DNA of 64,000 nt from an uncultured bacterium (GTDB taxonomy: Bacteria > Actinomycetota > Acidimicrobiia > Spongiisociales > UBA5794): positions 86,514-150,513 of the forward strand of contig CAVZRA010000013.1 of NCBI GenBank assembly GCA_963777645.1, given 5' to 3'. Position numbers and translations under genes: made by a program. Below, piece by piece: positions 37-18,539 of the stretch (positions within the stretch are counted from its first letter, which is position 1; the number at the start of each line of letters is the position of its first letter). The notes below the pieces were generated by a model. It was given only the letters and a program-made list of their open reading frames with translations, made no database searches and was not told the DNA's origin.

Positions 37-1182
37 GTGCTGCCTCTGTCCGGGATCCTCGTGGCCGATTTCTCGCGTGTGCTTGCCGCGCCGCTGGTCA
101 CCATGCAGCTCGCCGATCTCGGAGCCGACGTGATCAAGGTCGAGCGGCCCGGGCCAGGAGACGACACAAGGACTTGGGGACCCCCGTGGGCACCGGATGG
201 AACATCGACGTACTACCTGGGGCTCAACCGGGGCAAGCGCTCGGTGATCCTAGATCTCGACGACCAGACAGATCTCGAGCTCGCTCGACGACTCGCACGG
301 CGCGCCGACGTGATCGTTGAGAATTTTCGCACAGGCTTCATGGATGATTTGGGACTCGGCTACGAGAAGATCACCGCCGCCAACCCGGGCGTGGTCTACT
401 GCTCGATCTCGGGATTCGGAACGGAGGGCTCCACGTCCGGATTCCCCGGGTACGACCTGCTCGTGCAAGCAATGAGTGGAATCATGAGCATTACCGGCCC
501 CTCAGCTGAATCCCCCACCAAGATCGGCGCCGCCGTCGCCGACATGGTTGCTGGTCTCTATGCGACAATCGGGGTCATGGCCGCACTCTACGAACGCGCA
601 ACGACTGGATACGGCAAACGAGTCGAAGTGTCCCTGTTCGACGCGGCTCTCAACGCCCTGCTCAACCAGGGATCAGCATACTTGAATGCCGGGATCGTTC
701 CGACTGCCCAGGGCAATCGGCACCCGTCGATCGCCCCATATGAGGCATTCCGAGCAGCGGACCGCGAATTCGTCCTTGCCGCTGCCAACGACAAACTCTG
801 GCTGATCACGTGTCGGGTTCTCGGTCGCGACGACCTCGCCTCAGACGTCCGCTTTGTCACCAACGCCAAGCGGCGGGTCAATGTCGCCGCGCTCGTGAAC
901 GAACTCAACGCCTCCTTCGCCACCCAGCCCGCCGACTACTGGATCGAGCAGTTGCGTGCAGACGGCGTGCCTGCCGGACCGATCAACCACATCGACGAAG
1001 CGTTCGAGTGGGCGACCGCCGCAGGTATCGACGCGAGCGTCACATACGAAGCGACCGGGGCCAGCGTCGTCAGGTCGCCTATCCGGATCGAAGGTAACCC
1101 GACCACCTCTCCCATCCCACCACCCGATCTCGACGAACAGGGAGACGCCATCAGGAAATGGCTGTCTCAGGAGAGTCCCTGA
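37..1182 (+). CDS. Class III CoA-transferase (CaiB/BaiF family)
   Basis: 381-aa ORF with a GTG start. The N-terminus 'GILVADFSRVLAAPLVTMQLADLGADVIKVE' and 'DVIVENFR' are typical of family III CoA-transferases. Confidence 0.8.
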   Translation: MLPLSGILVADFSRVLAAPLVTMQLADLGADVIKVERPGPGDDTRTWGPPWAPDGTSTYYLGLNRGKRSVILDLDDQTDLELARRLARRADVIVENFRTGFMDDLGLGYEKITAANPGVVYCSISGFGTEGSTSGFPGYDLLVQAMSGIMSITGPSAESPTKIGAAVADMVAGLYATIGVMAALYERATTGYGKRVEVSLFDAALNALLNQGSAYLNAGIVPTAQGNRHPSIAPYEAFRAADREFVLAAANDKLWLITCRVLGRDDLASDVRFVTNAKRRVNVAALVNELNASFATQPADYWIEQLRADGVPAGPINHIDEAFEWATAAGIDASVTYEATGASVVRSPIRIEGNPTTSPIPPPDLDEQGDAIRKWLSQESP

Positions 1183-1766
1183 TCGCCCAGCGCCCGTTCA
1201 TAGTCGGAACGAGTATTGATGTCGACCGGCGCCATCATGGGGAACGGGATGCCGAGCACATCACCGGCAGCGGACTCGAGGAATCGCCAGACACCGTGCG
1301 GTCCCTCGACGTTCGCCGCCTTGCGCAGCGCTTCTGCCGAGAAGAGCAACGGGTGGGCAGGCCCATCGGTGTAGACCGACCACGCTGCCCACGGCTTGTG
1401 CTGATGCCATTCGTCCACCAGCCTGTTGATCATCGTGGTGGTGACACCGGGCATGTCGGCGAGGAGCACAACGACGGCGGCACACTCCCCCAGCGCCGTG
1501 GCGCCGGTGTGGAACGAGGACATGTTCCCCGACTCGAAGTGCGGGTTGTGAACGGTCTCAGCCCGTCCCCCGGCAACCTCGGCAGCGACTTCATCGGCTC
1601 GATGCCCGGTAATGACCACAATGCGGTCTAGATGAGAAGCCTCCGCGGCGGCAACGGTCACGGCAACCACGGTGCGCGCTCCAAGTGGGAGCAGCTGCTT
1701 GGGAAGCGACCCATCCATCCGCTCCGAAAGGCCCGCCGCCAGCACCATTCCCCCGACGTCACACAT
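1167..1766 (-). CDS. mocA: MobA/MocA-like nucleotidyltransferase (YgfJ-family molybdenum hydroxylase accessory protein)
   Basis: 'MVLAAGLSERMDG..PKQLLPLG' is an NTP-transferase N-terminus, followed by 'LLADMPGV'. ATG 1766 has an AAGG-type RBS about 7 nt upstream; ATG 1748 or 1811 are also possible. The gene is divergent from yqeB. Confidence 0.75.
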   Translation of the reverse strand: MCDVGGMVLAAGLSERMDGSLPKQLLPLGARTVVAVTVAAAEASHLDRIVVITGHRADEVAAEVAGGRAETVHNPHFESGNMSSFHTGATALGECAAVVVLLADMPGVTTTMINRLVDEWHQHKPWAAWSVYTDGPAHPLLFSAEALRKAANVEGPHGVWRFLESAAGDVLGIPFPMMAPVDINTRSDYERALGDQGLS

Positions 1767-1990
1767 CACATCGCCTTCATGCCAGCACGAGAGCAGACCT
1801 GCAGACTGCACCCCGTGATCTCTCCGTTGCGAGCCGAACGATAATCGTGAAGGGTGGCAGCTTCGGTGTCACTACGTGTCCGGGCCATGGAGCCAACTAG
1901 TCTATGGGACCGCCCCGGAATACGTCGTCGGCGACGGGCGTCAACCAGGACGCAACACCGTGACATTCGCCGCTTGGGGAAGGAGCATCG

Positions 1991-2800
1991 ATGTTGTTCG
2001 GCGACCATCTCGTCGTGTTTCGAGGAGGAGGCGATCTCGCCACGGGGGCGATCTACCGCCTACGGCATGCCGGTTTCCCCGTGCTCGTGCTGGAACTACC
2101 GCAACCGCACGCGATCCGACGTAGCGTCGCAGTTGCCACCGCCGTTGTTGACGGAAGGGCTCTGATCGAGGATCTCGATGCCATTCTCATCGACGATATC
2201 GACGAGGCGCTCGAGGTCGCTCGCTCTGGCGCCGTTCCCGTGCTCGTCAGCCCGGTGTTGCTCCAGCTCCCCTGGCAACCCTCGGTCGTCATCGATGCCC
2301 GTCATGTCAAGGTGAATGTCGATACGACCATCAACGACGCCCCGCTGGTAATCGGTCTCGGCCCCGGCTTCACGGCCGGATTTGATTCTCATGCTGTGAT
2401 CGAGACCATGCGCGGCCACTTCCTGGGAAGGGTCATCTGGGAGGGCGCGCCAAGCGACAACCCCGCCCAGCTCGACCTGCCGGGCACAAAGCCATCGGAG
2501 CGGATCGTGAGGGCACCCACATTCGGCATCCTCAGTTGGAAGGTCGCCATCGGTGATTTCGTCGGCACCGGCGACGTGCTCGGCGACATAAACGGGGTCC
2601 CGGTGCGGTCCCGGCTCGGTGGTGTGGTGCGGGGACAACTTCCTGCAGGCTATGAGGTCGAGTGGAATTGGAAGATCGCCGAGGTCGACCCGCACGCCGA
2701 TACGAGTGCCTGTTTCGAGATCTCCTACGAGGCTCTAGCCGTCGGTGGTGGCGTAGTCGAGGCGGTGCTCACCTGGCTCAACGAGCCCACGTCCCGGTGA
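1991..2800 (+). CDS. yqeB: YqeB-family selenium-dependent molybdenum hydroxylase system protein
   Basis: 269 aa, with a GGAG RBS before ATG 1991. 'VVFRGGGDLATGAIYRLRHAGFPVLVLE' and the overall length match my recollection of the YqeB/EF2563 family. The gene is followed by yqeC with a GTGA overlap. Confidence 0.75.
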   Translation: MLFGDHLVVFRGGGDLATGAIYRLRHAGFPVLVLELPQPHAIRRSVAVATAVVDGRALIEDLDAILIDDIDEALEVARSGAVPVLVSPVLLQLPWQPSVVIDARHVKVNVDTTINDAPLVIGLGPGFTAGFDSHAVIETMRGHFLGRVIWEGAPSDNPAQLDLPGTKPSERIVRAPTFGILSWKVAIGDFVGTGDVLGDINGVPVRSRLGGVVRGQLPAGYEVEWNWKIAEVDPHADTSACFEISYEALAVGGGVVEAVLTWLNEPTSR

Positions 2801-3522
2801 TTTCCCTCGAGCGGCTCCTCGGGATCGGTGGTCACGAGCTGGTTTCGCTCATCGGGGGTGGTGGCAAGTCAACCCTCCTGTTTGCCCTCGGAGACGAGCT
2901 CGCAGGCAGGGGAGCACGGGTCATCCTCACCACAACTACGAAGATGGGCAGGGAACAAGCGCTCACCGCTCCGGTGATTTGCTGGTCGGCGGAGATGGAG
3001 TGCGCCACAGATGCGCTTGCCGGTGACGGCCCCGTGATGCTGGTGACCGGGGGCGACGACCACAAGGTCACAGGTCCGTCGCCCGATGTCGTCGACCGGC
3101 TGTTCGCCGAATCTGGTGCCGACTATGTCATCGTCGAGGCCGATGGCTCCAGAGGAAGGCCGCTGAAGGCGCCGGCCGCACACGAACCGGTGGTACCGGC
3201 GACGACAACGATGGTCGTTATCTTGATGGGCATCGACGCGATCGGCAAGCCACTTGCGGAGGCGACCCATCGCGTCGAGCAGGCCATCGCATTCAGTGGC
3301 CTGCTCCCGCACCACGTGCTAACCGTTGCGGACTGTGCCCACATACTCACCCACCCGAACGGGCTGCTGCGGGCATGCCCGGAAGCGGCGAGAGTCGTCA
3401 TCGGGATAACCAAGGTCGGCCAGACGGAGCAGGCGATTGCCGCCGAGTTGCGTCGGCGGCTACTCGACCACCCGCGTATCTCCGATGTCGTCGTGTTCGG
3501 GCGACCCATGCGCCCGTCGTGA
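2797..3522 (+). CDS. yqeC: YqeC-family selenium cofactor biosynthesis / hydroxylase accessory protein
   Basis: P-loop 'LIGGGGKSTLLFAL' and 'DYVIVEADGSRGRPLKAP'. GTG 2797 overlaps the yqeB stop (GTGA). The upstream extension of the tracked ORF (from 2662) lies inside yqeB and is rejected. Confidence 0.75.
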   Translation: MISLERLLGIGGHELVSLIGGGGKSTLLFALGDELAGRGARVILTTTTKMGREQALTAPVICWSAEMECATDALAGDGPVMLVTGGDDHKVTGPSPDVVDRLFAESGADYVIVEADGSRGRPLKAPAAHEPVVPATTTMVVILMGIDAIGKPLAEATHRVEQAIAFSGLLPHHVLTVADCAHILTHPNGLLRACPEAARVVIGITKVGQTEQAIAAELRRRLLDHPRISDVVVFGRPMRPS

Positions 3523-3538: not shown

Positions 3539-6202
3539 CTAGCCGAACGCTCTTCTCAGGAAGGCTGCCATCTGGCCACGAGTGACGTAGCTGGTAGGGC
3601 AGAACCGGTCATTCGCAGGTGGATTGCAGCCCCTGGTAATACCGGCGGTTGCCAGTTTCTCGATGCTCGACTCGAAAGCCAAACCGTCATCGTCAACGAA
3701 GTCATGAGACCCCTGATCACTGAGACCCAGTGCTCTCACCAGGAAGGCCGCCATCTGGCCACGAGTCACGTAGCGGTTGGGGCAGAACCGGTCATTGGCC
3801 GGTGGGTTACAGCCTGCGGTAACCGCGGCAACAGCTAGCTTGTCGATCGCCGCCTCGAAAACCGAACCGTCGTCGTCGACGAAGTAGTCACCGGCACCGG
3901 CATCGGCATACCCGAGCGCACGGACCAGGAATGCGGCCATCTGGCCACGAGTCACGTAACTGTCGGGGCAGTACCGGTCATTGGCCGGTGGGTTACAGCC
4001 ATGAGTGATCCCCGAGCCGGAAAGCCAATCAATGTCCTCCTCGAAGATCAACCCACCCGTATCGATGAAACCCCGGGCTGTTGTGAACGTCGCGGCAGGG
4101 CCAATCGTCTGCTGCTCACCGGAATCAAATGCCTCGACCTCGAAGCGGTACGTGGTGTTCGGCAAGAGACCGGCGACGGTTGCGGTGGTGGCCGTCGTGG
4201 TCTTCACCGCCGTCCCATCCAGATACACCCGATACCCGGCGACCCCGTAGTCGTCTACAGCCGCGGGCCAGGCCAGGGTGATCTGGTCCTTGCGGATACT
4301 CGGCGCCCGCAGCGTCGCGCTCGGCCAGGTAGGCGGATCCGAGATATCGCCAACATCGGAGACGGCGAGACTCAGGGTGCCCGTTGCACCGCTGGAGCCG
4401 CTCGCCTGCACCCAGTAGGTATGGCCGGGGAACACGTCGGCGCTGACCCGGGCGCTTGTGTGGCCTGCGATGTCGTCGTTGCAGGCAAGGGCGGTCAACG
4501 CATCGACCGTCGCGCCCTCGTACAAACCGAGGATCGTGTCAAAGTCACTCCCTGCAGTGTCGATTGTCATCTCGGTCCTGTAGCCGGGCTCGAGGCGATA
4601 CCAGACGGTGGCACCGATGTTATCGACGACACCATCGCTCGGATCGAGACATCGCCGTGGCTCCCCCGACTGCATCGTCGCCCGCACCGTCGACGCCGAT
4701 AAGGAGATCGGAGAGGTCAGCAAAACCGCCTCTTCGAACGGATCATTCTCGGGCCAGGGCAGGTCGAGCCGCGAGAGCGCGTCGGCGACGTCGAGCCTGG
4801 CAATCGACCACGAAGCCGCCGGGATCTCCACCGGCGAGTACTTGATGGCGGCGAGGATGTCTTCCACACCAGCGCTTGGCTTTGCCTCCTTGAGGAGCGC
4901 CCACGCACCCGCAACATGTGGGGCTGCCATCGACGTGCCGTTGTAGCTGGCCCATCCGCCCGGCACCGACGAGTAGATCATCGACCCGGGGGCGATCACA
5001 TCGACCATCTCGCCGATGTTGGAGAAGTCCGAGCGCTCATCGGCTTTGGTGCTGCTGGCGACGGTGACCGCGGTCGAGATACACCCCGGTGCGCTGACAC
5101 CGTCGTTGGCATAGCCGTTGCCTGCGGCGATGACCGTGGCGACACCTGCGCCGAGCAGGTTGTCGATTGCCAGCTTGCGGACGTCCGTGTCACAGGCGGA
5201 CGGGTAGGTCGTCGTACCACCGATGCTCATGTTCACCGAAGCGATGTTGTACGTGTCGCGCACGGCATAGACATACTCGAGCGCCGCCAGCTGGTCGGCG
5301 GTGTAGGCGGCGGCGCCGCCGCCCACATCCGAGAACACCTGGACTGCGACGATATCGGCACCGGGTGCCACTCCGGAAAGACCCGGCGAGTCATAGCCGG
5401 CGGCGATCCCGGCCACATGCGTACCGTGCGGGCAATTGACAGTATCGAAGAGACACGGAGCGGCCGATCCAGGCCCGTGGACGCTTGTCTTCTCGCCGGG
5501 GCAGTCGCCGCCACTGCTGAAACAGGCCTCACCAACAACCCGGCCCGACAGAAATGCGTGGGTACTGTCGACACCGGTGTCGACGATTGCCACCGACTGT
5601 CCTGCACCGTCGTATCCGAGGTCCCACACGTCTGGAGCGTTGATGAGCGGCACCGACTCGCTGAGCACAGCGGTATCGAGCTCATCGAGTTGCACCGTGG
5701 CCGCAAGACCCGACGCCCGCAGACTCGCCAGCGCGGCCGGGTCGAGCTCCAGAGCCAGAGCCGGTATGTACCGGTAGCGGTGCAACACCTTGTAGCCGGC
5801 TGTTCCGAGTGCGCCGATCACCTGTTGCTGCCTTGCATCGATCGTGTCCGCCTGTGACACACGCTCAACGGTTTCGAGCAACTGCCCGGGTGCCCATCGC
5901 ATCTGGAGAGTGACGATCACACGCACTGTCCCATCACGCGTTGCGACGCCGGCGAGCTGGTCGAAACTGTCCGCTGCCGCCACATCGAACCGTGTGTCAC
6001 TGGTCAAGCTCTCACGGCTGATCGCAGACTCTGGCTTGATCACGTCGCCCCCTGGCATCGGCCGGGCAGCGTCAGCCGGCCCAGCCACACCGACCGTGGC
6101 CCCGCCCACGATCAGGAGGACGACGCCGACAACCCCGATAGCTCCGCCGCTACGTTGAGAAATCCGACCCAATCCTTCCCTCCTGAACAGACGTGGGAGC
6201 AT
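3539..6202 (-). CDS. Secreted S8 subtilisin-like serine protease with FN3-like segment and three C-terminal SLH-like wall-anchor repeats
   Basis: Catalytic motifs 'VAIVDTGVDSTH', 'HGTHVAGIAAG' and 'GTSMAAPHVAGAWALL'. There is an N-terminal TM/signal segment. Three repeats of about 60 aa have the form 'GITxGCNPPANDR(F/Y)CPxxYVTRGQMAAFLxRA'. Confidence 0.85.
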   Translation of the reverse strand: MLPRLFRREGLGRISQRSGGAIGVVGVVLLIVGGATVGVAGPADAARPMPGGDVIKPESAISRESLTSDTRFDVAAADSFDQLAGVATRDGTVRVIVTLQMRWAPGQLLETVERVSQADTIDARQQQVIGALGTAGYKVLHRYRYIPALALELDPAALASLRASGLAATVQLDELDTAVLSESVPLINAPDVWDLGYDGAGQSVAIVDTGVDSTHAFLSGRVVGEACFSSGGDCPGEKTSVHGPGSAAPCLFDTVNCPHGTHVAGIAAGYDSPGLSGVAPGADIVAVQVFSDVGGGAAAYTADQLAALEYVYAVRDTYNIASVNMSIGGTTTYPSACDTDVRKLAIDNLLGAGVATVIAAGNGYANDGVSAPGCISTAVTVASSTKADERSDFSNIGEMVDVIAPGSMIYSSVPGGWASYNGTSMAAPHVAGAWALLKEAKPSAGVEDILAAIKYSPVEIPAASWSIARLDVADALSRLDLPWPENDPFEEAVLLTSPISLSASTVRATMQSGEPRRCLDPSDGVVDNIGATVWYRLEPGYRTEMTIDTAGSDFDTILGLYEGATVDALTALACNDDIAGHTSARVSADVFPGHTYWVQASGSSGATGTLSLAVSDVGDISDPPTWPSATLRAPSIRKDQITLAWPAAVDDYGVAGYRVYLDGTAVKTTTATTATVAGLLPNTTYRFEVEAFDSGEQQTIGPAATFTTARGFIDTGGLIFEEDIDWLSGSGITHGCNPPANDRYCPDSYVTRGQMAAFLVRALGYADAGAGDYFVDDDGSVFEAAIDKLAVAAVTAGCNPPANDRFCPNRYVTRGQMAAFLVRALGLSDQGSHDFVDDDGLAFESSIEKLATAGITRGCNPPANDRFCPTSYVTRGQMAAFLRRAFG

Positions 6203-7425
6203 ACCGTCGACGGGTACCGCACCTTCTCTACTATGACCGGGTGCGCTTGCTCATCCGCCTTGCCGTCGTGTTCATGGTATCGACCGCTTTCAGCCCTCTG
6301 TTGAGCGCGGCGGCGGCACTACCGCCGGGCGGGACCTTCGTCGATGACGACGCATCGCAGCACCAGGGGGCAATCGAAGCCATCTCAGCAGCAGGTATCA
6401 CCTACGGGTGCAACCCGCCGGACAACGACCGATTCTGCCCGAACGATCCGGTCACGAGAGGGCAGATGGCGGCGTTCCTGGCACGCGCCCTCGACCTTTC
6501 GTCGGCGCCGCAGGCGGGTTTCACCGACACCGCCGACTCAGTGTTCTCAACCGATATCGACAGGCTCGCCGCAGCAGGCATCACCTACGGGTGCAACCCG
6601 CCGGAGAACGACCGATTCTGCCCGAACGATCCGGTCACGAGAGGGCAGATGGCGGCGTTCCTGGCACGCGCCCTGAAAATCCCGGTCGTCGTCGGTGACA
6701 CGTTCATCGATATCGATGGCTCGCCGTTCCGGGGAGCCATCGCGGCCATCCACGGCGCCGGGCTCACGACCGGGTGTAATCCCCCGGAGAACGACCGATT
6801 CTGCCCGAACGATGCGATTTCCCGGGCGCAGATGGCGACTTTTCTCAGTCGTGCGCTCGATCTCACCCCGATATCGGTCACCCCGAGGCGATACCAGGTA
6901 GCGGTGATCGGTCGGGATGGGTGGGGAGCTGCGCCGCCGCGCGGTACATTTGCCCCCAACGAGATCGAGCACATCACGATCCACCACTCCGACACGTCGG
7001 GCGGCGTAACAGGGCCGGCACAGTTCCGTTCGTGGCAGCAGTGGCACTTCCACCTTGGTTGGCCCGACATCGCATATCACTTCATCATCGGGCGCGATGG
7101 GAAGGTCTATGAAGGTCGGCCGTACACCGCCGTCGGCGATACCGCCACCGAATACGACCCGACCGGCCACCTCCTGATCGTCCTCGAGGGTGACTTCAAC
7201 ATCGAAACACCGACCGATGCTCAGCTCGAGATGTTGGCGGAGATGGTCGCCTGGGGCTCGATGCAGTTCAATGTGGACGTGGCGACGATCCAGGGCCATC
7301 GCGATCTCGCCGCGACCAGTTGCCCGGGGGACAACCTCTATGCACGCATCACCGACGGCTCGATCGCAGGGCGGGCAGCAGAGATCCTCGCCGCAGGTGG
7401 CATCACCCTCGACGTGCAGCCGTAA
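6193..7425 (+). CDS. Cell-wall amidase (amidase_2/PGRP domain) with three N-terminal SLH-like repeats
   Basis: Signal-like N-terminus and three 'GITYGCNPPxNDRFCPNDxxTRGQMAAFLARAL' repeats. The C-terminal motifs are 'ITIHHSDT', 'WPDIAYHFIIGRDGKVYEGR' and 'GHRDLAATSCPG'. The start is ambiguous: GTG 6193 overlaps the protease start, and in-frame GTG 6241 is also plausible. Confidence 0.8.
   Translation: MGAYRRRVPHLLYYDRVRLLIRLAVVFMVSTAFSPLLSAAAALPPGGTFVDDDASQHQGAIEAISAAGITYGCNPPDNDRFCPNDPVTRGQMAAFLARALDLSSAPQAGFTDTADSVFSTDIDRLAAAGITYGCNPPENDRFCPNDPVTRGQMAAFLARALKIPVVVGDTFIDIDGSPFRGAIAAIHGAGLTTGCNPPENDRFCPNDAISRAQMATFLSRALDLTPISVTPRRYQVAVIGRDGWGAAPPRGTFAPNEIEHITIHHSDTSGGVTGPAQFRSWQQWHFHLGWPDIAYHFIIGRDGKVYEGRPYTAVGDTATEYDPTGHLLIVLEGDFNIETPTDAQLEMLAEMVAWGSMQFNVDVATIQGHRDLAATSCPGDNLYARITDGSIAGRAAEILAAGGITLDVQP
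6388..6674 (+). repeat. Near-identical 104-bp direct repeat (6388-6491 and 6571-6674, 183-bp period) inside the amidase gene
   Basis: The two copies differ at 2 of 104 positions by my alignment (t/c at 6396, c/g at 6426). They encode SLH-like repeats 1 and 2. Confidence 0.8.
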
Positions 7426-7443
7426 CGCATCGCCGTTGCATCG

Positions 7444-7836
7444 TCACGGATCGACCAGATCGCCCGGATCCGGCGGCACGTCGACCGCATATCGCTCCAG
7501 CACCCCCAGGGGAACGATGTCGAGCACATTCTCATGGGTGGCGGCAAGGACTACAGGGGAGGCAGCACCGTCGAGGTGAGCGCGCAACCAGTTAGGCGCG
7601 GTGACGCACCACCTGTCGCCCGGCTCGAGACCCGGGAAGTGATACTCGGGCATCGGGGTGATCAGATCGTTGCCAATCCGCCTCTGATGCTCGAGAAATT
7701 CCCGGCTCACGACGGCGCAGATGGTGTGGCTGCCCCGATCGCCGGGACCGGTGCGACACGATCCGTCCCGAAACCAGCCGGTCAGGGGATCCATGCTGCA
7801 CTGCTCCAGCTCCCCACCGATGACGTTCTTCTCCAT
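7444..7836 (-). CDS. DUF2237 family protein
   Basis: 'GGELEQCSMDPLTGWFRDGSCRTGPGDRGSHTICA...FLEHQRRIGNDL' resembles DUF2237. The ATG at 7836 removes an Arg/Ser-rich unlikely N-terminal extension. Confidence 0.65.
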   Translation of the reverse strand: MEKNVIGGELEQCSMDPLTGWFRDGSCRTGPGDRGSHTICAVVSREFLEHQRRIGNDLITPMPEYHFPGLEPGDRWCVTAPNWLRAHLDGAASPVVLAATHENVLDIVPLGVLERYAVDVPPDPGDLVDP

Positions 7837-7912
7837 ATGGCGATTCAGGCTATCAGCACCCGTGATCGACAGTTCGCCACTGAGCGATAATGGCTGAAAT
7901 AGGAGGTACACA

Positions 7913-8224: not shown

Positions 8225-8241
8225 GCAACCGCAAGTAGCAG

Positions 8242-10462: not shown

Positions 10463-10473
10463 CGATGTCGTCA

Positions 10474-10491
10474 GCCTCCGGACCAGGAGGC
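10474..10491. terminator. GC hairpin between convergent genes
   Basis: GCCTCC-GGACCA-GGAGGC, a 6-bp stem with a 6-nt loop. It lies in the 66-bp gap between convergent stops and has no clear T-tract. Confidence 0.3.
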
Positions 10492-10528
10492 AACCAACGC
10501 CGGTGGGTGATTGTTTCGTTGGACCGCG

Positions 10529-11257
10529 TCACGGCTGCTCGACGAGCGTGTCCCAGCACTCCGGGGTCGTGAACACGCCGAGCATCTCAGGTGACGTAGG
10601 TACCTGAAGCTCCAGGGTCATCTGCGAATAGGTGACGGTACCGGTCACGGCATCGCTCGCCGCGTCATAGTGCGCAGCCACAGTGCCCGGCTCGTCGAGC
10701 TTTACGGGTGTCGTCCCCGCGGTCGACGTCACCGACGCCGACACCGGCACCTCGCCCGCGATCGTCTGGGTCGCCGGATCGTAGCGCAGAACCGAGCCAC
10801 CCGCCGAGGTGGGCTCCCTGCGGCTATCGCGCACAAAGCCATACGTCTCGATGTCCCCGTTGTCCCTCGTGAGGAAAGCGCTGCCGTACAGGTACATCGG
10901 CCCGCCATCGACAGGAAACTGGATCTGTACGACGTTCCACGCATAGAGAGTGTTGTCGACGATCTCTCCCCCGTTTGGCACCTGGTGATCGGTGAAGTTG
11001 GAGAACCAGCCTTCACCGGCGACGTAGTCGGCTGGCACTTGCTCGCAGCTCGCAGCCGTCGTAGCCGTCGCCGTGGTCTGCGATCCACCCGTTGTGCCCG
11101 GGGCGGTCTGGGTCGTCCCGGCCGCTTCTGTCGAGGTCGTCGTGTCGCCGGCAGCGAGCGTCGTCTCGGCGACGGTGTCCCCACCACTTGCCGCTATCAA
11201 GGCGATGACCACAGCCGCGAGGACGACACCAATCCCCACCAAGATCCACCGTTGCAT
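10529..11257 (-). CDS. Membrane-anchored/secreted Thr-rich protein of unknown function
   Basis: N-terminal TM 'WILVGIGVVLAAVVIALIAA', a Thr/Ala-rich linker, then a roughly 170-aa domain with two Cys. No family recognised. Confidence 0.5.
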   Translation of the reverse strand: MQRWILVGIGVVLAAVVIALIAASGGDTVAETTLAAGDTTTSTEAAGTTQTAPGTTGGSQTTATATTAASCEQVPADYVAGEGWFSNFTDHQVPNGGEIVDNTLYAWNVVQIQFPVDGGPMYLYGSAFLTRDNGDIETYGFVRDSRREPTSAGGSVLRYDPATQTIAGEVPVSASVTSTAGTTPVKLDEPGTVAAHYDAASDAVTGTVTYSQMTLELQVPTSPEMLGVFTTPECWDTLVEQP

Positions 11258-11327: not shown

Positions 11328-14300
11328 CTATTCCTGGTAGCCCGGGTGACCGACCTTGGTGCCTTCACCACCCGCCATCGGCAGGTGAGGCATCGATCCC
11401 TCGAGGCCCCGCCACAGCGCATACATCTGGGCCGCAGGCTCGAGTGTGAGTATCTGCCCGGCAACGGCTCCCGTCCCCGGCTGCGCCGAGACAAGCGCAA
11501 GCGTTTCGTTCTCGAGGGTGGCCTGGAGCGACGGTGCCGAGTATTCGACCTTGCCGTTGATCGCCAGACGATGGGTCTCACCGTCGAAACGGCCTTCGAT
11601 GACGGAGGTGTCGCCATCGTTTGTGATCCAGAAGGCGTTGTCCTTCTCCGCCTCGAAGTCGGGACGATGCAGGTACAGCCTCGGCTTGTCGCGATACGGG
11701 TCGCCCGAAGTGGGGCATGCGGTGACACAGTTGCCGCACTCGTTGCAGAAGTCGGTGAGCACCGCAATCTGGAGCGACTGGTCCACACGGAACGGCCCCA
11801 TTTCCCCCACTGTCACCCCGCCGTCGCCAACCGCCAGTGCCGGTAGCTGTGCACGGAACGGCGACATCTGATATGTCATCAACGCCATGTTCGGGCACAC
11901 CCCGACACATAGGCTACAAATCGTGTCGCAGTCGAGACAGCGTGATGCCTCTGCCTGCGCTTCGGCATCGGTGAAGGTATGCAACGTCTCGTCGAAATTG
12001 TCTCTCACGTCGAGCGGTGTGTGCCGCACCGGAACCCTGTACTCACGATGCGCCCTGCGGGTCACCATGTCCGAGAGGCTCAGCTCGAGCGGCTTCCAGG
12101 TGGCGGGCATCGGCACCGGAATGCCCGAGGCAGCCTCGATGATGGCTGCGGCAACGGCCTTGCCGTCTGCGGCCGCCTTGACGATCGATGCGGGACCGGC
12201 GGCAGCCACGTCGCCACCGGCGTATACGCCGGGGATGGTCGTCTGGTGGGTCTTCGGGTCGACGACGATGTAACCACGCGAGGTCAGTTCCGGCTCGTCG
12301 TCGCCAAAGAAGTCGAGCAGCGAGTACTGGCTGATCGCCAGAATCAGCGTGTCCAGCTCGATTTCGAACTCCGAGTCCGGCACGTCGAACGGGATCTTCC
12401 TGCCGGAAGCATCACGGTCCCCCCGGTACTCGGTCTTGGTGCAGACGAGGCCCTTGAGCTTGCCGTCTTCAACGTGGATCGAACGCGGGTTGGCAAGCTC
12501 GACGAACTTGACACCCTCGGCAAGCGACTCGTGGATCTCCTCGCGGTCGGCAGGCATCTGGTCGATGCTCCGCCGGTAGATGAGAGAGGTCTCTGTTGCC
12601 CCGACCCGCCATGATGAGCGAACACAGTCCATGGCGGTGTCGCCGGCACCGACAACACCGACGCGCGGACCGACGGGCATAGGATGCCCCTCGCGAACGC
12701 TGCGCAGGAACGCCAGAGCATCGATGACACCTTCGGCGTCCTCGCCCTCAAAGCCGAGATGCTTGGGGAGCTGAGCGCCAACCGCGACGAAGGTGTAGTT
12801 GTAGCCCTGGTCGCGAAGATCGGTCAGCGTGAAGTCACGGCCTGCCTTCATGTTGTACTTGATCTCGACCCCGAGGTCATCGAGCGCCTGCAGGTCCTGG
12901 TCGATCTTCGACTGCGGGATCCGATACTCCGGGATGGCGCCACCGACCATGCCACCCGCATAGGGGTAGGCCTCGAAGATGGTGACGGACAGCCCGGCTT
13001 CCCCCAACTCACGACCGGCCGCAATGCCGGCAGGGCCGGCGCCGATGATCGCCACCTTGCCGGGCATCCCCGACGCTTTCGTGACACCGCTCGAGGTCTC
13101 GTGCTCCATGATGAAGCGCTTCATCTCACGGATTGCAAGCGGCTCGTCGAGGTGGGTTCGAATACAGGTGGTTTCGCAGAGGTGGTCGCAGACCCGGCCG
13201 AGAATGGACCCGAGCGGGTTATCGGCACGCACGATCGACACGGCCTTGTCGAAATCGCCCTCACGGACTGCACGCATGTATGCGGGAACATCCTGATCGA
13301 TCGGGCATTCATCGACACAGGGTGCCTGGATACAGTCGAATAGGTGCAGCTCGCGTTCGGTCTTGGAGCGATCGGTACGGAACGAGCCCTTCAGATAGCG
13401 CCAGTCAGTGCGCACGAAGCTCGCATACTGGCGGAGGTTGACCCGCTTCAGAGCGTTGAGAGTCAGCCTGACCAGATCTGCGGCTCGCTCTTCGTCGAAG
13501 CCATGGTCCCGAGCCCACGTCTCGATTGCGGCCAGCGGCGATTGCCCGTCGCTCACCGAGCGCAGCGCCTCACCCAGGGAGACTACCTGGTCTGTGGTCA
13601 GGTTCAGCCCGCTCTCGGTGAGGGCGCCGTAGGTGAGGATGCCTGCGAAGTCGGCCATGTTCTCCTGCTGCAGCGCCGTGTTTGCAATGAACTCGGCGAG
13701 ATTTGCGGCACCGGCCTTGTCGAGAGCGTTGTTCAACTCTTCGATGTACTGCGGAAGACGCAGGTAGCCGCCGGTCTTGAGCAGATCGGAGCAGACCGTG
13801 ATCGTCTTCATCCCCGCTCGCAACAGATCGGAGACATTGAACGCGTCGGCGCCACCCGCATAGGACAACAGCAGATCACCTTTGAACTCCTCGGAGATCC
13901 GCAGCGCCAGGTTGCTGGTGACGGCATGCAGCGCCCGACCCGACAGGTACATCATCTCGTCGGACTCGAACACGGTGCGGTGATTCTCCACCTCGAGCGT
14001 GTTGGTCAGCTTGAGCCCGAAAGTGAGCCCGTTGGTCCTGGCGACCCGCCGCAGATTATGGAACATCGGGACCGCATCGACGTACTTGAGGTCGTGGCCA
14101 AATGCCTCGTCGGGAACGGGGATGTCGGTAAAGCCGAGGTCGTCGTTGATGATGCCACGCACCCGGTCGGCACCGAGCAGGGTCGGGTTGCACTTCACCG
14201 ACGTGTGGATCTTCCGCTCATTCAACAGGTAGAGGACTATCTGCTCGATCTCGTCCGGTGGGCATCCGTGCATCGTCGAAAGGGTGATGGTGTCGGACAC

Positions 14301-14906
14301 GGTGTCGGGGATGGCGATGTCCCGGATCTCCGGGTACCTGCGGGCAACGATGTCGACGTACTGCTGCTTGTATGCCGAAGCATCGGCCATGGCGTCGAAG
14401 TACCACTGCACGTTCGGCTTCTTGATGCCCTCGAGGTTGTAGCCGACAGACATGTTGAAGATCATCCCGGGAAAGTCACCCGGGAAGCCCAGCTTCTTGT
14501 GCAGCGCATGAATCAGCACCCAGGCGCGCAGATACTCGTCGAATGATTCGAAAATCTTGAGCTCCTGCGACCACTCGACGTTGTATCCCTCGTCTTCCAG
14601 ATCGATGCACGGCTTGTTGACGTCGAGCTCATCCAGGGTCTGGACGGTCTTCAGCTCGAGGAACCGGGCGCCGACGAGCCAGGACACAATGATGTTCTGC
14701 GCCATCTGGGTGTGCGGGCCTGCGGCGACACCAAACGGTGTCTCCAGGAGCTTGCCGTACTTCTCAAAACGGAAACGATCGTCTACCGACGGTACGAAGA
14801 ACGAAGACCGGGGAATACCAAAGATCGAGTCCTTTTCCTCGAGCTCGGTGAACACCCAGTCTGTGAGCTGTTCCATCGTGATGGGATGGAAGCGGTCCGA
14901 CATCAT
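11328..14906 (-). CDS. ygfK: YgfK-like Fe-S/flavin oxidoreductase (DHOD-like barrel + GltD-like FAD/NAD(P) domains + 2x[4Fe-4S])
   Basis: ATG 14906 has a GGAG RBS and lies 7 nt after the ssnA stop. The N-terminus 'FGVAAGPHTQMAQNIIVSWLVGARFLELKTVQ' is collinear with E. coli YgfK as I recall it. Dinucleotide folds are 'VAIIGAGPAGIAAG' and 'VGVVGAGDTAMDC'. Ferredoxin motifs are 'CLDCDTICSLCVGVCP' and 'CNECGNCVTACP'. Confidence 0.85.
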   Translation of the reverse strand: MMSDRFHPITMEQLTDWVFTELEEKDSIFGIPRSSFFVPSVDDRFRFEKYGKLLETPFGVAAGPHTQMAQNIIVSWLVGARFLELKTVQTLDELDVNKPCIDLEDEGYNVEWSQELKIFESFDEYLRAWVLIHALHKKLGFPGDFPGMIFNMSVGYNLEGIKKPNVQWYFDAMADASAYKQQYVDIVARRYPEIRDIAIPDTVSDTITLSTMHGCPPDEIEQIVLYLLNERKIHTSVKCNPTLLGADRVRGIINDDLGFTDIPVPDEAFGHDLKYVDAVPMFHNLRRVARTNGLTFGLKLTNTLEVENHRTVFESDEMMYLSGRALHAVTSNLALRISEEFKGDLLLSYAGGADAFNVSDLLRAGMKTITVCSDLLKTGGYLRLPQYIEELNNALDKAGAANLAEFIANTALQQENMADFAGILTYGALTESGLNLTTDQVVSLGEALRSVSDGQSPLAAIETWARDHGFDEERAADLVRLTLNALKRVNLRQYASFVRTDWRYLKGSFRTDRSKTERELHLFDCIQAPCVDECPIDQDVPAYMRAVREGDFDKAVSIVRADNPLGSILGRVCDHLCETTCIRTHLDEPLAIREMKRFIMEHETSSGVTKASGMPGKVAIIGAGPAGIAAGRELGEAGLSVTIFEAYPYAGGMVGGAIPEYRIPQSKIDQDLQALDDLGVEIKYNMKAGRDFTLTDLRDQGYNYTFVAVGAQLPKHLGFEGEDAEGVIDALAFLRSVREGHPMPVGPRVGVVGAGDTAMDCVRSSWRVGATETSLIYRRSIDQMPADREEIHESLAEGVKFVELANPRSIHVEDGKLKGLVCTKTEYRGDRDASGRKIPFDVPDSEFEIELDTLILAISQYSLLDFFGDDEPELTSRGYIVVDPKTHQTTIPGVYAGGDVAAAGPASIVKAAADGKAVAAAIIEAASGIPVPMPATWKPLELSLSDMVTRRAHREYRVPVRHTPLDVRDNFDETLHTFTDAEAQAEASRCLDCDTICSLCVGVCPNMALMTYQMSPFRAQLPALAVGDGGVTVGEMGPFRVDQSLQIAVLTDFCNECGNCVTACPTSGDPYRDKPRLYLHRPDFEAEKDNAFWITNDGDTSVIEGRFDGETHRLAINGKVEYSAPSLQATLENETLALVSAQPGTGAVAGQILTLEPAAQMYALWRGLEGSMPHLPMAGGEGTKVGHPGYQE

Positions 14907-14913
14907 CACCCTC

Positions 14914-15936
14914 CTAGAGCTTGGCGTGCAGTCTCTCGGCTTGTTCTCTTGCCTTGGCGCGGACCTCGTCCGCATCTACGCGAGTTGGCTTTCCATCCTT
15001 GAAGACGACTTCGCCGTCGACCTTGACCTCGACGGGGTGGACCCCGGGAGTAAACGCCAGGTGCCACGGATCCATCGGGTCGTACGACCAGGTGACCTCG
15101 TCATTGCGAGCTTCGGGCACGATGTTCCAGCCCTCTTCGAGCCATGACCACGCCGGGTCGGGCCCGACGGTGACGTCAACGGAACGCTGCATCACGTAGG
15201 CGAGACGGAACGACTCGATCATGTTGGCGCCGATCCCGTCGGTCCCCAAAGCAACCGGATTGCTGAACCGGGCGGGGTCTGCGTAGCCAACACCATTGTT
15301 GAGGTTCGATCGTGGATTGTGCAGGATCGTCCCCTTCAGGTTGTGATCGGTCGGTAAGTGAACACAGTGGCTGAGCAGCCAATTATCCTCGGTGAGCCCT
15401 TCGAGACGTTGCGGAGCATCGACATCGCCGATTCCCTCGCAAACATGGATGTGGACTCCGACACCCAGATCTCTGGCAAGACCGGCAGCGGCCTCGAGCG
15501 ATTCGTCGGTGCAGGTGAACGCTGCATGGACCCCGACCAGAGCCTTGTTGCCTTCTTTGACGAAGCGCTCATTCTCCGCCAGCCCCCGCCTGGCTCCATC
15601 TGCACCGTGCCTGTCGGTGATCCCGTATGCGGTGAGAACACGTACCCCGACCTCTTCGCACGCCTCCTTGATGACCGACAGCGAGCCCTCGATGGCGCTC
15701 GGCGTCTCGTTGTGGTCGACGATGGCGGTGGTCCCCGCTTCGAGTGCCTCCAGTGCCCCGAGCCGGGCCGAAGCACGCAGCATGTCGAGGTCGAGCGCCA
15801 CATCGAGTCGCCACCAAACCTGCTCCAGGATTTCCTGGAAGTTGGTTGCCACCTTCGGGGGCGCAGGCATGCCCCGCGCCAGTTCCGAGTAGAGATGGTG
15901 ATGGGCACATACGAGACCGGGAGTTGTTGCCGTCAT
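14914..15936 (-). CDS. ssnA: SsnA-like amidohydrolase (N-terminally short form)
   Basis: 'GLVCAHHHLYS...WWRLDVALD...AIVDHNETP...HIHVCEG' is collinear with E. coli SsnA from about residue 55 onward. The ORF starts right at the HxH metal motif. Confidence 0.8.
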   Translation of the reverse strand: MTATTPGLVCAHHHLYSELARGMPAPPKVATNFQEILEQVWWRLDVALDLDMLRASARLGALEALEAGTTAIVDHNETPSAIEGSLSVIKEACEEVGVRVLTAYGITDRHGADGARRGLAENERFVKEGNKALVGVHAAFTCTDESLEAAAGLARDLGVGVHIHVCEGIGDVDAPQRLEGLTEDNWLLSHCVHLPTDHNLKGTILHNPRSNLNNGVGYADPARFSNPVALGTDGIGANMIESFRLAYVMQRSVDVTVGPDPAWSWLEEGWNIVPEARNDEVTWSYDPMDPWHLAFTPGVHPVEVKVDGEVVFKDGKPTRVDADEVRAKAREQAERLHAKL

Positions 15937-15956
15937 GCGATCCTTCCCTTCAGACT

Positions 15957-18539
15957 TCAGATTTTCGACTGGATATCAACAGGCTCGTGGACACCCATCG
16001 GTACCTGTGTTCGCCACTTCCCGTCTACTTCGTGAAGCGCGGCTGCGACCGCACCCGCGGTCGGTACCAAGCCTATCTCACCGACGCCCTTGATTCCGTA
16101 AGGGGATCTCGGTTGCGGAACCTCGACGATAATCGACTCGACATCGGGCATGTCCTTGGCCCGAAGAATGCCCAAGCTGCGCAACGTCTTCTTGATAGGC
16201 CGCGCGTCGTCATCAGTGGGAAACTCCTCAGTCAGGGCATATCCCAAACCCATGTGCACGGCACCTTCGATCTGACCCTGCACCAGGGTGGGATTGACAG
16301 CTTTGCCAACGTCGTGCGCGGCAAGGACCTTCTCTATCTTGCCGGTTTTCGGGTCAGCGATGACCATCTGCGCAGCATATCCGAATGCGGAATGGACAAT
16401 CGGATTCTCGACACCGTCCTCGAGCGCATTGGTCCAATCTACGCGGTATTCGCCCTGGTAGTCGATGCCCGGCTGCTGACCGTTCTCATTGGCCACCCGG
16501 CAAGCGTCTTTTACGCCTCCCGCCGCCATCAGAGTGCCCCTTGACCCGGTCGTCTGCCCGGCTCCGAGTTCGCGGTTCGTGTCAGAGGTGATCCTGATCC
16601 GAGCCGGGTCTACCCCTAGCTCCTCTGCGGCCACCTGGATCGCCACTGTATGCACACCCTGCCCCATCTCAGTCCAGCAGTGTTGTACTTCTACGGTACC
16701 GTCCTCTTCGAACCGAACAACAGCTCGGGAGATCTCCACGAAGCCGTTGCCGAGCCCTGAATTCTTGATCCCTAGCCCGATCCCGACGGCCTTCCCACTG
16801 GCCTTCGCGGCTTCGTAGGCAGGCTTGAGAGCTTCGAGGCACTCGGTGGCTCCTCGACAGCCATCGTCCATGATCTGACCGGGTCCCCAGACGACGCCCG
16901 GCGTGACTACATTGCGAAACCGCATCTCCCAGCCGCTGATCCCGACAGCATGTGCGAGTCGATCGATTGTCCCCTCCATCGCAAACTGTGCCTGGTTTGC
17001 ACCAAATCCTCTGAAGGCACCCCCGACCGGGTTGTTGGTCCGCACAGCCACAGCCTCTACGTCGACATTGTCGACCACGTACGGTCCGCACATGTGCCCG
17101 GCGGCACGTTCCAGCACCTTCATCCCGACCGAGGCATACGGCCCAGAGTCACCGATCATCCGGGACCGTAGCGCCGTCAGCTTGCCCAGTTCGTCGCATC
17201 CGGCCCACACCTCGATCTCAATAGGGTGTCGCTTGTCGTGAACCCTGAAGGATTCTTCACGAGATAGCGTGCATTTGACCGGTCGCTGGAGCAGGTATGC
17301 CGCAAGTGCAGTCTGACCCTGATTTGACATGTCTTCTTTGCCACCGAAAGCGCCCCCATTCGATACCAATTCGACTACGACTTGCAGTGGCTCAATCCCG
17401 AGTAGAGAAGCAATCTGATCACGATCGTCCCATATCCCTTGCCCGCCGGAGTAGACATGAAGTCGTCCCGTCTTGTCTGGCATGGCGAGGGTGGATTCCG
17501 GCTCGAGAAACGCATGTTCCACTCGCTGCGTTTTGAAGACCTCGTGGAGGGTGTGTGTCGAAAAAGCCAGCGCCGCATCAACATCGCCACGCTGGTACTT
17601 CGACGTTGAGAGCACATTGCCGTCCAGGCCCCAAACCGCATCCTCATCGGACGCCAGCGCGGTCCTGACATCGGCAAACGGCACGAGCACGTTGTACTCG
17701 ACGTCGATGAGCTCGGTGGCGGCCCTAGCCTGACGACGCGTCTCCGCCACAACGATTGCCAGGACATCTCCGTAGTATGACGTCCTCCCGCCCTCGGGAA
17801 TGAACACGGGCCAGTCTTTGTGGATCATCCCCACGCGGAGCTTTCCCGGGACGTCCGCGGCAGTGAACACTGCTACAACACCATCGGCAGCTTCGGCACG
17901 GCCGGTATCGATTCGTAGCACATCGGCGCGAGCGTGTTCGGTGAGTCTCAAGGCACCGTGCAGGAGGCCAGCAGGCCGGAGATCGTCGACATAGCCGCGA
18001 TCACCCAGGGCGAGGTCCATGGCTTCGTATTTGACGCCGTTCTTGCCAACCGCGCCCGGCAAACTCAGCGGCGCTACTGATCCGGAGGCCAACATCTCAA
18101 CAGCATCCAAGATCTTGGTATACCCGGTGCACCGACAGAGGTGAGCCCCCAAACGACCGGCCGCAATCTCCGACGTTACGCCTGCTGGGCCCTTCTGGTC
18201 GAATAGTGCCTTTGTTCGCACCATGATGCCGGGTGTACAGAATCCACACTGGAGGGCGCCGGTGACCGCAAAGGCTGACGCCAACCGGTCCCGCTCGGCA
18301 GGATCAAATCCTTCAAGAGTGGTCACCTCAGCGTCAGCAGCCTTTTCCATGCTGACAAGACAGCTCTGGATGGCTTTACCATTGAGCAGGACCGTGCATG
18401 CCCCACATTGGCCAGAGGGCGAGCAACCGTCCTTGGGTGAAGTCACGTCGAGCTCGTCGCGCAATGCCGAAAGCAGGTGGGGGTGGTCCGCGGCGACAGC
18501 AACCGACGCACCGTTTACGGTCATGCTCACTTTTGGCAT
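15957..18539 (-). CDS. Fused [2Fe-2S]x2 / molybdopterin-binding hydroxylase (XdhD / selenium-dependent XDH / Mop-like), no FAD domain
   Basis: 'CSPSGQCGACTV' and 'CGFCTPG...CRCTGY' are followed by an MoCo domain ('GGAFGGKED', 'FRGFGANQ', 'PYGIKGVGE'). ATG 18539 lies 6 nt after GGGAGG. Confidence 0.85.
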   Translation of the reverse strand: MPKVSMTVNGASVAVAADHPHLLSALRDELDVTSPKDGCSPSGQCGACTVLLNGKAIQSCLVSMEKAADAEVTTLEGFDPAERDRLASAFAVTGALQCGFCTPGIMVRTKALFDQKGPAGVTSEIAAGRLGAHLCRCTGYTKILDAVEMLASGSVAPLSLPGAVGKNGVKYEAMDLALGDRGYVDDLRPAGLLHGALRLTEHARADVLRIDTGRAEAADGVVAVFTAADVPGKLRVGMIHKDWPVFIPEGGRTSYYGDVLAIVVAETRRQARAATELIDVEYNVLVPFADVRTALASDEDAVWGLDGNVLSTSKYQRGDVDAALAFSTHTLHEVFKTQRVEHAFLEPESTLAMPDKTGRLHVYSGGQGIWDDRDQIASLLGIEPLQVVVELVSNGGAFGGKEDMSNQGQTALAAYLLQRPVKCTLSREESFRVHDKRHPIEIEVWAGCDELGKLTALRSRMIGDSGPYASVGMKVLERAAGHMCGPYVVDNVDVEAVAVRTNNPVGGAFRGFGANQAQFAMEGTIDRLAHAVGISGWEMRFRNVVTPGVVWGPGQIMDDGCRGATECLEALKPAYEAAKASGKAVGIGLGIKNSGLGNGFVEISRAVVRFEEDGTVEVQHCWTEMGQGVHTVAIQVAAEELGVDPARIRITSDTNRELGAGQTTGSRGTLMAAGGVKDACRVANENGQQPGIDYQGEYRVDWTNALEDGVENPIVHSAFGYAAQMVIADPKTGKIEKVLAAHDVGKAVNPTLVQGQIEGAVHMGLGYALTEEFPTDDDARPIKKTLRSLGILRAKDMPDVESIIVEVPQPRSPYGIKGVGEIGLVPTAGAVAAALHEVDGKWRTQVPMGVHEPVDIQSKI

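Follow-up and report, generated by a model that had tools for sequence, protein, structure and literature searches.

An operon for a fused molybdenum hydroxylase, a short SsnA and YgfK in an uncultured Acidimicrobiia bacterium: a probable upper module of the reductive uric-acid pathway

What is the role of a set of selenium-related molybdenum (Mo) hydroxylase genes in an uncultured Acidimicrobiia bacterium (Actinomycetota), where the set is split into two blocks and the fused hydroxylase has no flavin adenine dinucleotide (FAD) subunit beside it? The question is raised by a 64-kb stretch of DNA of this bacterium, referred to in its entirety as the window. Block A contains a mocA-like gene, yqeB and yqeC, and block B the genes of the fused hydroxylase, a short SsnA-like amidohydrolase and YgfK. 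Both blocks were compared with the corresponding loci of relatives, which are given L-numbers. Judged by sequence homology, block B probably encodes the first three enzymes of the reductive uric-acid (2,8-dioxopurine) pathway, and block A would supply the cofactor. The pathway and its selenium dependence have been worked out in gut Firmicutes and E. coli. The gene map is based on a listing of open reading frames (ORFs) and on profile searches (NCBIfam models with their cut-offs, and Pfam), which gave the following six focal genes.

1167–1811, minus strand: MocA/YgfJ-like nucleotidyltransferase of the MobA family (TIGR03310, 118.1 bits; PF12804 NTP_transf_3, 118 bits)
1991–2800, plus strand: yqeB, short form of 269 residues (TIGR03309, 260 bits)
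2797–3522, plus strand: yqeC (TIGR03172, 169.1 bits; PF19842, 140 bits)
11328–14903, minus strand: ygfK, 1191 residues, third gene of the operon (TIGR03315, 915.6 bits; Fer4_20, Pyr_redox_2)
14914–15936, minus strand: ssnA-like short amidohydrolase, 340 residues, second gene of the operon (PRK07203, 255 bits; TIGR03314, 238 bits)
15957–18539, minus strand: fused hydroxylase with two [2Fe-2S] domains and a molybdopterin domain, 860 residues, first gene of the operon (TIGR03311, 817.6 bits; Fer2_2, Ald_Xan_dh_C, MoCoBD_1, MoCoBD_2)

All six are uninterrupted ORFs and lie, almost to the base, where a preliminary description of this DNA had placed them. Block B is a single, translationally coupled minus-strand operon with the order hydroxylase, ssnA-like gene, ygfK. 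The hydroxylase starts at the ATG at 18539 and is followed by a gap of 18 nt to the ssnA-like gene, whose stop codon is overlapped by the ATG of ygfK; the ygfK homologue in L002 is called at the equal length of 1191 residues. Upstream of the operon lies a divergent folD and then gdhA. Profile searches of the folD/gdhA side and of the downstream gene of 242 residues revealed no FAD subunit flanking the operon, as had been claimed from the sequence earlier. The 242-residue product was considered as a hidden YgfM-type FAD subunit and rejected, since it matches no family and looks like a Thr-rich anchored protein.

The fused hydroxylase scores 817.6 bits with TIGR03311 (Se_dep_XDH, “selenium-dependent xanthine dehydrogenase”), just below the cut-off of 830.45, and 205 bits with the XdhD model TIGR03313, for which the cut-off is 1101.9. 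The alignment also shows that the GEG insertion found around E606 of E. coli XdhD is absent. The name “xdhD-like” in the preliminary description therefore points to the wrong subfamily, and the enzyme is of TIGR03311 type. The enzyme retains the cysteine motifs of both [2Fe-2S] clusters as well as the catalytic Glu (GVGEIG), and there is no FAD domain. A fused enzyme of this kind from C. sporogenes, XdhAC, likewise lacks an FAD domain and does not work with NAD(P)H. Urate and 2,8-dioxopurine are interconverted by this enzyme, whose electron donor in the cell is unknown; protein purified from a selD mutant shows no activity (10.1101/2025.04.24.650524). The lack of an FAD subunit is the published norm for the clostridial fused enzyme XdhAC/DOPDH and so no anomaly. 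XdhAC is tentatively placed in TIGR03311 by way of the E. faecalis locus. By homology, the hydroxylase of the window is predicted to act on urate/2,8-dioxopurine as a selenium-dependent oxidoreductase of the XdhAC/DOPDH type. The active-site signature of DOPDH (bovine F1009V, A1078T/S) was tried as a further marker and found not to be diagnostic, the A1078 position being Thr in this enzyme and Ser in a PucD-like enzyme of the same window, and F1009 not being reliably alignable.

The solved structure closest to the hydroxylase over its full length is that of the Desulfovibrio aldehyde oxidoreductase (307 bits). The enzymes of D. gigas and D. desulfuricans (1VLB, 1DGJ) share the fused 2Fe2S-2Fe2S-Mo layout without FAD and align along the whole length, but they act on another class of substrate and belong to another NCBIfam model, NF045668, with which the window enzyme scores 443 bits against a cut-off of 1100. 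The Desulfovibrio enzyme is not known to depend on selenium, and it uses the cytosine dinucleotide form of the cofactor. According to PMC2276186, the fused aldehyde-oxidoreductase family can carry this cofactor. For the Mo domain the next closest structure is the selenium-dependent nicotinate dehydrogenase of E. barkeri (3hrd_A, 248 bits). The Mo-binding domains of that enzyme (3HRD) and of the purinolytic clostridial enzymes are homologous to that of the window hydroxylase, in which a labile selenium ligand on Mo would be expected, although the E. barkeri enzyme has a different subunit organization and, unlike the window hydroxylase, an FAD subunit.

YgfK exceeds the cut-off of TIGR03315 (IPR017701) with 915.6 against 835.3 bits. 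It is ~160 residues longer than the E. coli protein, to which it is 45% identical over residues 1–405 and 31% over residues 405–1003, and its residues 520–994 resemble NfnB, GltD and dihydropyrimidine dehydrogenase. It is predicted by homology to contain an N-terminal flavin mononucleotide (FMN) domain resembling the one in dihydropyrimidine dehydrogenase, a central iron-sulfur (FeS) and FAD/NADPH module of the GltD/NfnB type and two C-terminal 4Fe-4S clusters. In vitro, YgfK is an NADPH-dependent 2,8-dioxopurine reductase and SsnA opens the reduced ring (10.1101/2025.04.24.650524; 10.1101/2025.05.19.654654); one study could detect the activity of YgfK only in coupling with SsnA. By analogy with the published enzymes, the YgfK of the window is predicted to be an NADPH:2,8-dioxopurine oxidoreductase. 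Together, the published work on YgfK, SsnA and XdhAC points to the operon at 11.3–18.5 kb as the upper module of a known pathway. It also alters the preliminary description, where YgfK was the obvious electron partner of the hydroxylase and now appears as the next enzyme of the pathway. The biochemistry of these families, called largely open at that time, is no longer so for XdhD/XdhAC, YgfK and SsnA, and remains so for YqeB and YqeC.

The best matches of E. coli SsnA and YgfK in the window, found by tblastn, are the ssnA-like gene and ygfK, with 32% identity for SsnA. The best families of the SsnA-like protein are the SsnA models PRK07203 and TIGR03314, at 255 and 238 bits, and the next family reaches 82 bits. 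Both scores are below the cut-offs (444 and 455.5), because the protein is a short form of 340 residues that matches only positions 57–334 of the 441 of the profile. Relative to E. coli SsnA, the first ~55 residues, an internal helical insert and part of the C-terminal β-sandwich are deleted. All catalytic and SsnA-specific motifs are kept in the alignment with the E. coli protein, namely HxH, WWRLD, DH, HIHxxE, HNxRSNxNNxVGY and LGTDGIG. Nearly all of the best 120 homologues listed (JGI, ENA, NCBI and Logan) have 340–341 residues and are 82–91% identical, and those listed with a taxon are mostly from Acidimicrobiia. The length of these homologues and the intact motifs rule out that the short form is a frameshift artefact.

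An AlphaFold model of the short SsnA is of moderate quality (predicted local distance difference test, pLDDT, 72; predicted template-modelling score, pTM, 0.78), with residues 208–264 below a pLDDT of 50, and was used only to assign the fold class, amidohydrolase. It matches amidohydrolase deaminases with a template-modelling (TM) score of 0.78 when normalized to the query length and ~0.6 when normalized to the targets, which are longer. From its sequence, the short SsnA is predicted to open the reduced purine ring by hydrolysis. In the Chloroflexota loci the short SsnA is 76–84% identical to that of the window, and there the hydroxylase is 48–51% identical, YgfK 62–64% and the N-terminal FMN domain of YgfK 74–76%. 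Such slow evolution of SsnA (L013–L026) would fit a tight complex of SsnA with YgfK handling an unstable intermediate; transfer of ssnA alone is an alternative.

In block A, YqeB scores above the trusted cut-off of TIGR03309 (260 against 220 bits), together with YqeC, which exceeds that of TIGR03172 (169.1 against 73.05 bits). The 269 residues of YqeB match the C-terminal half of the E. coli protein, with 42% identity to residues 267–529, and YqeC is 34% identical to E. coli YqeC. Translation of yqeC most likely starts with the GTG at 2797, in overlap with the stop codon of yqeB (GTGA, 2797–2800). The mocA-like gene is divergent from yqeB, 180 bp away, a position it also has in L029, L031, L038, L042 and L046. 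Its product is below the equivalog cut-off of TIGR03310 (118.1 against 186.45 bits), and only the general MobA-like NTP-transferase family PF12804 is supported. It is a generic nucleotidyltransferase of the MobA/MocA type, which probably makes the molybdopterin cytosine dinucleotide cofactor. Within the marker set of the preliminary description, assignment by hidden Markov models thus upholds YqeB, YqeC and YgfK, and leaves MocA, SsnA and the hydroxylase below their equivalog cut-offs.

The joint presence of YqeB with YqeC is an accepted signature of the selenium-cofactor trait (PMC2276186, PMC5029168), and C. difficile requires selD and yqeB for growth on xanthine and urate, with no detectable requirement for yqeC (PMC11448449). 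The presence of both as real marker genes makes it reasonable that at least one hydroxylase of the window is matured with selenium, as had been proposed. A distance of 12.4 kb separates block A from the fused hydroxylase, and both also lie close together in L003, L022, L029 and L042.

Scanning genomes with YgfK gave 24 loci. Where the record names a taxon, YgfK is 65–84% identical in Acidimicrobiia and 62–64% in Chloroflexota and Limnocylindria, L023 giving a partial match of 303 residues with 76% identity; the closest loci are L022 (94%) and L003 (86%). At the DNA level, the nearest genome loci are 72–77% identical to the window, and a look-up for proteins identical to its SsnA gave no match, so that the source genome is absent from the collection searched. 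The order hydroxylase, SsnA, YgfK is found in 17 of the 17 loci with at least 4 kb of sequence upstream of ygfK, which span Acidimicrobiia and Chloroflexota.

In nine relatives a YgeW-like carbamoyltransferase or a YqeA-type carbamate kinase, or both, is encoded close to the hydroxylase and ssnA genes. These are L001, L009, L013, L016, L017, L019, L020, L023 and L026, all with ygfK also present except L001, where it is not adjacent. L001, L009 and L019 also have PALP (YgeX-class) genes. The lower-pathway classes seen near the hydroxylase and ssnA genes of these three (L001, 1–7000; L009, 19000–23561; L019, 1–6100) are a carbamate kinase, two or three genes like ornithine carbamoyltransferase (OTCase) and two PALP genes. 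No homologue of the hydantoinase HyuA or of the M20 peptidase YgeY was detected there, so that both ureido groups may be removed by phosphorolysis.

In 11 relatives (L031, L038, L039, L042, L046, L047, L049, L005, L007, L018 and L025) yqeB is preceded by a YgfM-like FAD subunit, an XdhD-like fused hydroxylase and an XdhC-family chaperone, so that ygfM-xdhD-xdhC-yqeB-yqeC make up one operon, transcribed divergently from mocA; its first three genes are missing from the window and L029. The XdhD-like protein of the relatives has the GEG insertion and is 36–37% identical to E. coli XdhD (~600 bits). The window contains three Mo hydroxylases, as the preliminary description had counted. The other two, a PucD-like xanthine dehydrogenase at 22130–25634 (hydroxylase 2) and hydroxylase 3 at 53203–56936, have their own FeS and FAD subunits, and none of the three is an orthologue of the XdhD-like protein. 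Hydroxylase 3 was considered as its relocated orthologue and rejected, the two being only 34% identical, against 36–37% between the XdhD-like protein and E. coli XdhD.

An intact and coupled yqeB-yqeC pair without the xdhD module implies another client enzyme. The hydroxylase of TIGR03311 type may be this client as the best candidate, with the PucD-like dehydrogenase second. The question of which of the three hydroxylases is concerned, left unclear in the preliminary description, can thus be narrowed to the fused enzyme as prime candidate, and the PucD-like enzyme may also depend on selenium. In C. sporogenes the xanthine dehydrogenase and the 2,8-dioxopurine enzyme both require SelD (10.1101/2025.04.24.650524).

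Gene identities, the structure of the operon and the conservation of both in relatives are direct observations; the substrates, the dependence on selenium and the hydroxylase's electron donor in the scheme that follows are deduced from homology and gene context. The FAD-less fused hydroxylase would run in reverse, removing the 6-oxo group from urate to yield 2,8-dioxopurine. YgfK would reduce this compound with NADPH, the electrons passing from FAD through the FeS clusters to FMN, which would end its aromaticity, and the short SsnA would immediately hydrolyse the unstable product and open the six-membered ring. The MocA-like enzyme would make the cytosine-dinucleotide form of molybdopterin, and YqeB and YqeC would install a labile selenium ligand on Mo with selenophosphate from a SelD encoded elsewhere. 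A donor for the hydroxylase is not found among the genes of the operon. In E. coli the step from urate to 2,8-dioxopurine is carried out by XdhD with the FAD subunit YgfM and NADH (10.1101/2025.05.19.654654).

The C. sporogenes 2,8-dioxopurine pathway (10.1101/2025.04.24.650524) shares with the window a fused FAD-less hydroxylase, YgfK and SsnA encoded together and YqeB/YqeC in the genome, and in both cases the nearest solved relative among Mo domains is the selenium-dependent nicotinate dehydrogenase, for DOPDH according to that paper. The two systems differ in that the window belongs to a host from Acidimicrobiia found in non-gut metagenomes, with an SsnA of 340 residues, a longer YgfK and no lower-pathway genes nearby. 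The E. coli ygeV-ygfT locus (10.1101/2025.05.19.654654; PMC2276186) contains the same six marker families, with ygfK and ssnA adjacent. Its hydroxylase is the XdhD type (TIGR03313) with YgfM and NADH, whereas that of the window is of TIGR03311 type, without YgfM and without the GEG insertion at E606. The YqeB of the window lacks the N-terminal XdhC-like domain of the E. coli protein, and the E. coli genes have another order, while the window locus is split by 7.8 kb. What is new here is the Acidimicrobiia host, the compact and conserved SsnA and the missing xdhD module, along with the recurrence of the three-gene order in metagenome-assembled genomes of Acidimicrobiia and Chloroflexota, the split layout shared with close relatives and, on one related contig, a selD of selenocysteine type close to yqeB; the six genes are otherwise largely explained.

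Several observations weigh against urate as the substrate and selenium as the ligand. None of hyuA, ygeW, ygeX, ygeY and yqeA was found in the window by tblastn with the E. coli proteins (E<1e-3), nor was selD with E. coli SelD (E<1). No residue signature separates selenium- from sulfur-dependent enzymes, A1078T/S not being discriminating. The hydroxylase and SsnA are below their equivalog cut-offs, so their substrate specificity could differ, and the additional XdhD-YgfM of E. coli type in the relatives could be the true urate reductase there, which would weaken the role of the TIGR03311-type enzyme. The characterized 2,8-dioxopurine pathway is strictly anaerobic, a way of life that this lineage may or may not share.

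Some of these points fit a paralogous pathway, in which the three enzymes of the operon act on a different N-heterocycle, such as another oxopurine or a pyrimidine-like or nicotinate-type compound. The scores of the hydroxylase (817.6 against 830.45) and of SsnA (238 against 455.5) agree with such a change, as do the truncated architecture of SsnA, the non-gut habitat and the separate XdhD-YgfM of the relatives, the urate reductase in E. coli. So does the lower pathway of relatives, which comprises two PALP genes and two or three OTCase-like ones, with no HyuA or YgeY homologue detected. A different substrate is nevertheless unlikely, given that YgfK is above its equivalog cut-off and that the short SsnA shares its family-specific motifs with the E. 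coli protein. The setting of carbamoyltransferase, carbamate kinase and PALP genes also fits lower 2,8-dioxopurine chemistry, and the PucD-type xanthine dehydrogenase, the amidohydrolases like 8-oxoguanine and guanine deaminases and the BMP-family binding proteins of the window, a type that often binds nucleosides, fit purine catabolism. It would be more surprising if yqeB and yqeC were leftovers of a lost xdhD-ygfM-xdhC operon, with hydroxylases using an ordinary sulfido cofactor and a locus not dependent on selenium. The xdhD module found ahead of yqeB in 11 relatives is indeed missing from the window and L029, neither an XdhC-family chaperone nor selD is found in the window, and ΔyqeC has no phenotype in C. 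difficile. The two genes are intact, above their cut-offs and coupled, however, in a window where three genes elsewhere are frameshifted; L029 keeps the module-less layout at ~72% nucleotide identity, which argues for selection, and in C. sporogenes the homologous fused hydroxylase shows no activity without SelD. The loss of selenium dependence is thus highly improbable.

YgfK may instead serve as the FAD/FeS electron partner of the FAD-less hydroxylase, replacing YgfM, or in a softer form may do so besides reducing 2,8-dioxopurine. The operon contains neither an FAD subunit nor a ferredoxin, only its three genes are kept across two phyla, and the clostridial enzyme, with its unknown donor, does not use NAD(P)H directly. 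In the solved structures 8oh5_C and 9bov_A, GltD/NfnB-like modules are fused to a formate dehydrogenase major subunit and to a protein deposited as “molybdopterin oxidoreductase”, which suggests that such modules can be wired to Mo enzymes. YgfK alone, on the other hand, converts 2,8-dioxopurine selectively with NADPH, and YgfK with SsnA gives ring-opened products. The protein looks like a rearranged dihydropyrimidine dehydrogenase, its four clusters presumably forming its own wire from FAD to FMN. In L001 no ygfK adjoins the hydroxylase and SsnA genes, in L012 the 1.4 kb of contig upstream of ssnA-ygfK gave no hydroxylase match, and no published test shows electrons passing from YgfK to the hydroxylase, all of which makes a partner role improbable. 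A step further, and distinctly doubtful, the strictly conserved three-gene operon of these Acidimicrobiia and Chloroflexota could be a self-sufficient four-electron reducer of urate, with YgfK also acting as donor to the hydroxylase and the short SsnA docking on the FMN domain of YgfK so as to trap the unstable intermediate. If true, YgfK as donor would answer the electron question left open in the 2025 papers and extend a “gut” pathway to soil and sediment bacteria. The upper module of the reductive uric-acid pathway, with its cofactor supplied from block A, remains the probable function of the locus.

The two blocks are separated by a spacer of 7.8 kb (3539–11257), in line with the ~8 kb of unrelated genes of the preliminary description, and none of its genes is related to the pathway. 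It contains the following genes.

3539–6202, minus strand: S8 peptidase with SLH and fn3 domains
6193–7425, plus strand: SLH amidase (N-acetylmuramoyl-L-alanine)
7444–8049, minus strand: DUF2237 protein
8242–8748, minus strand: c-type cytochrome
within 9380–10462, plus strand: multi-pass membrane protein, whose L002 homologue is adjoined by a PadR regulator
10529–11257, minus strand: Thr-rich anchored protein of 242 residues, with no family match and no FAD domain

In L003, L022, L029 and L042 the same spacer genes lie between ygfK and yqeC. The recurrence of the split layout with these genes indicates a stable neighborhood and no recent disruption. The SLH domains on the subtilase and the amidase (3539–7425) occur here in an Acidimicrobiia genome, and relatives keep both genes between ygfK and yqeC.

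An Rfam scan of the window, covering riboswitches such as those for molybdenum cofactor or purine, gave nothing at gathering thresholds, and promoter and terminator scans gave matches no better than chance. The window contains no tRNA genes, and a scan for in-frame TGA codons was blank when set strictly and, when set loosely, brought up only gene junctions and antisense noise. With the blank SelD search, these results agree with the earlier statement that selD, selenocysteine machinery and in-frame TGA codons are absent from the window.

A combination of the trait with SelD is seen in the relative L049, where an XdhD-like gene, xdhC, yqeB, mgtE (on the opposite strand) and selD follow each other; YqeB is 66% identical to that of the window, and selD is 1.7 kb from yqeB. 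The L049 SelD (5203–6255) scores 361 bits with TIGR00476. Its GTG start has a good ribosome-binding site and is followed by a TGA in frame where the E. coli protein has Cys17 (HGAG-U-ACK). Its close homologues are mostly called at 322–329 residues, which is consistent with truncation at the same codon, the upstream codon having been inspected in L049 only. In this relative the YqeB trait coexists with a SelD that apparently bears selenocysteine and would thus not be an “orphan” SelD. The mgtE-selD neighborhood is kept on contigs of 0.59 and 2.84 Mb (L070 and L071). These two also carry a Rdx-family call of 59 residues, a candidate truncated selenoprotein.

The PucD-like operon adjoins focA, a BMP-family binding protein and an amidohydrolase most like 8-oxoguanine and guanine deaminases. 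The FocA-type formate channel (25786–26655; TIGR04060, 308.6 against 290.1 bits) lies directly beside the operon, a location that recalls the NCBIfam names “formate-dependent uric acid utilization” of E. coli AegA and YgfT.

The Mo subunit of hydroxylase 3 is frameshifted near 55445 (55380–55520, minus strand). Translation from the ATG at 55519 gives MTTSKTHKQVSKPEYKVVGKSVTR, and the conserved sequence that continues it, IDSIAKVTGASKY..., lies in a different frame; the long ORF of this subunit starts only at 55383, with ~30–45 N-terminal residues missing. A RamA/AcsV-like corrinoid activase is split into 50354–51922 and 51657–52424, which match profile positions 2–441 and 435–626, and a two-domain ABC ATPase (40248–41713) switches frame near 40661–40742. 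Three frameshifts in 64 kb suggest indel errors of the assembly, with real pseudogenes as an alternative. The activase belongs to a one-carbon island (33441–38955, 48197–52424 and 63241–63960) that contains two uninterrupted homologues of MtmB-family methyltransferases without in-frame TAG, each with a corrinoid protein, as well as a methyltetrahydrofolate:corrinoid methyltransferase, a methylenetetrahydrofolate reductase and the 3′ part of a formate-tetrahydrofolate ligase gene.

The short SsnA has a practical consequence, since it falls below the TIGR03314 cut-off and surveys by IPR017700 would probably miss proteins of this kind. The SsnA reduced to its barrel and the operon of three genes also offer simple material for testing how an FAD-less hydroxylase is supplied with electrons. 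The comparison of the loci suggests that the upper module and the YqeB/YqeC markers are conserved in uncultured Acidimicrobiia and Chloroflexota from environmental metagenomes, which bears on how widespread selenium-dependent purine breakdown is outside guts.

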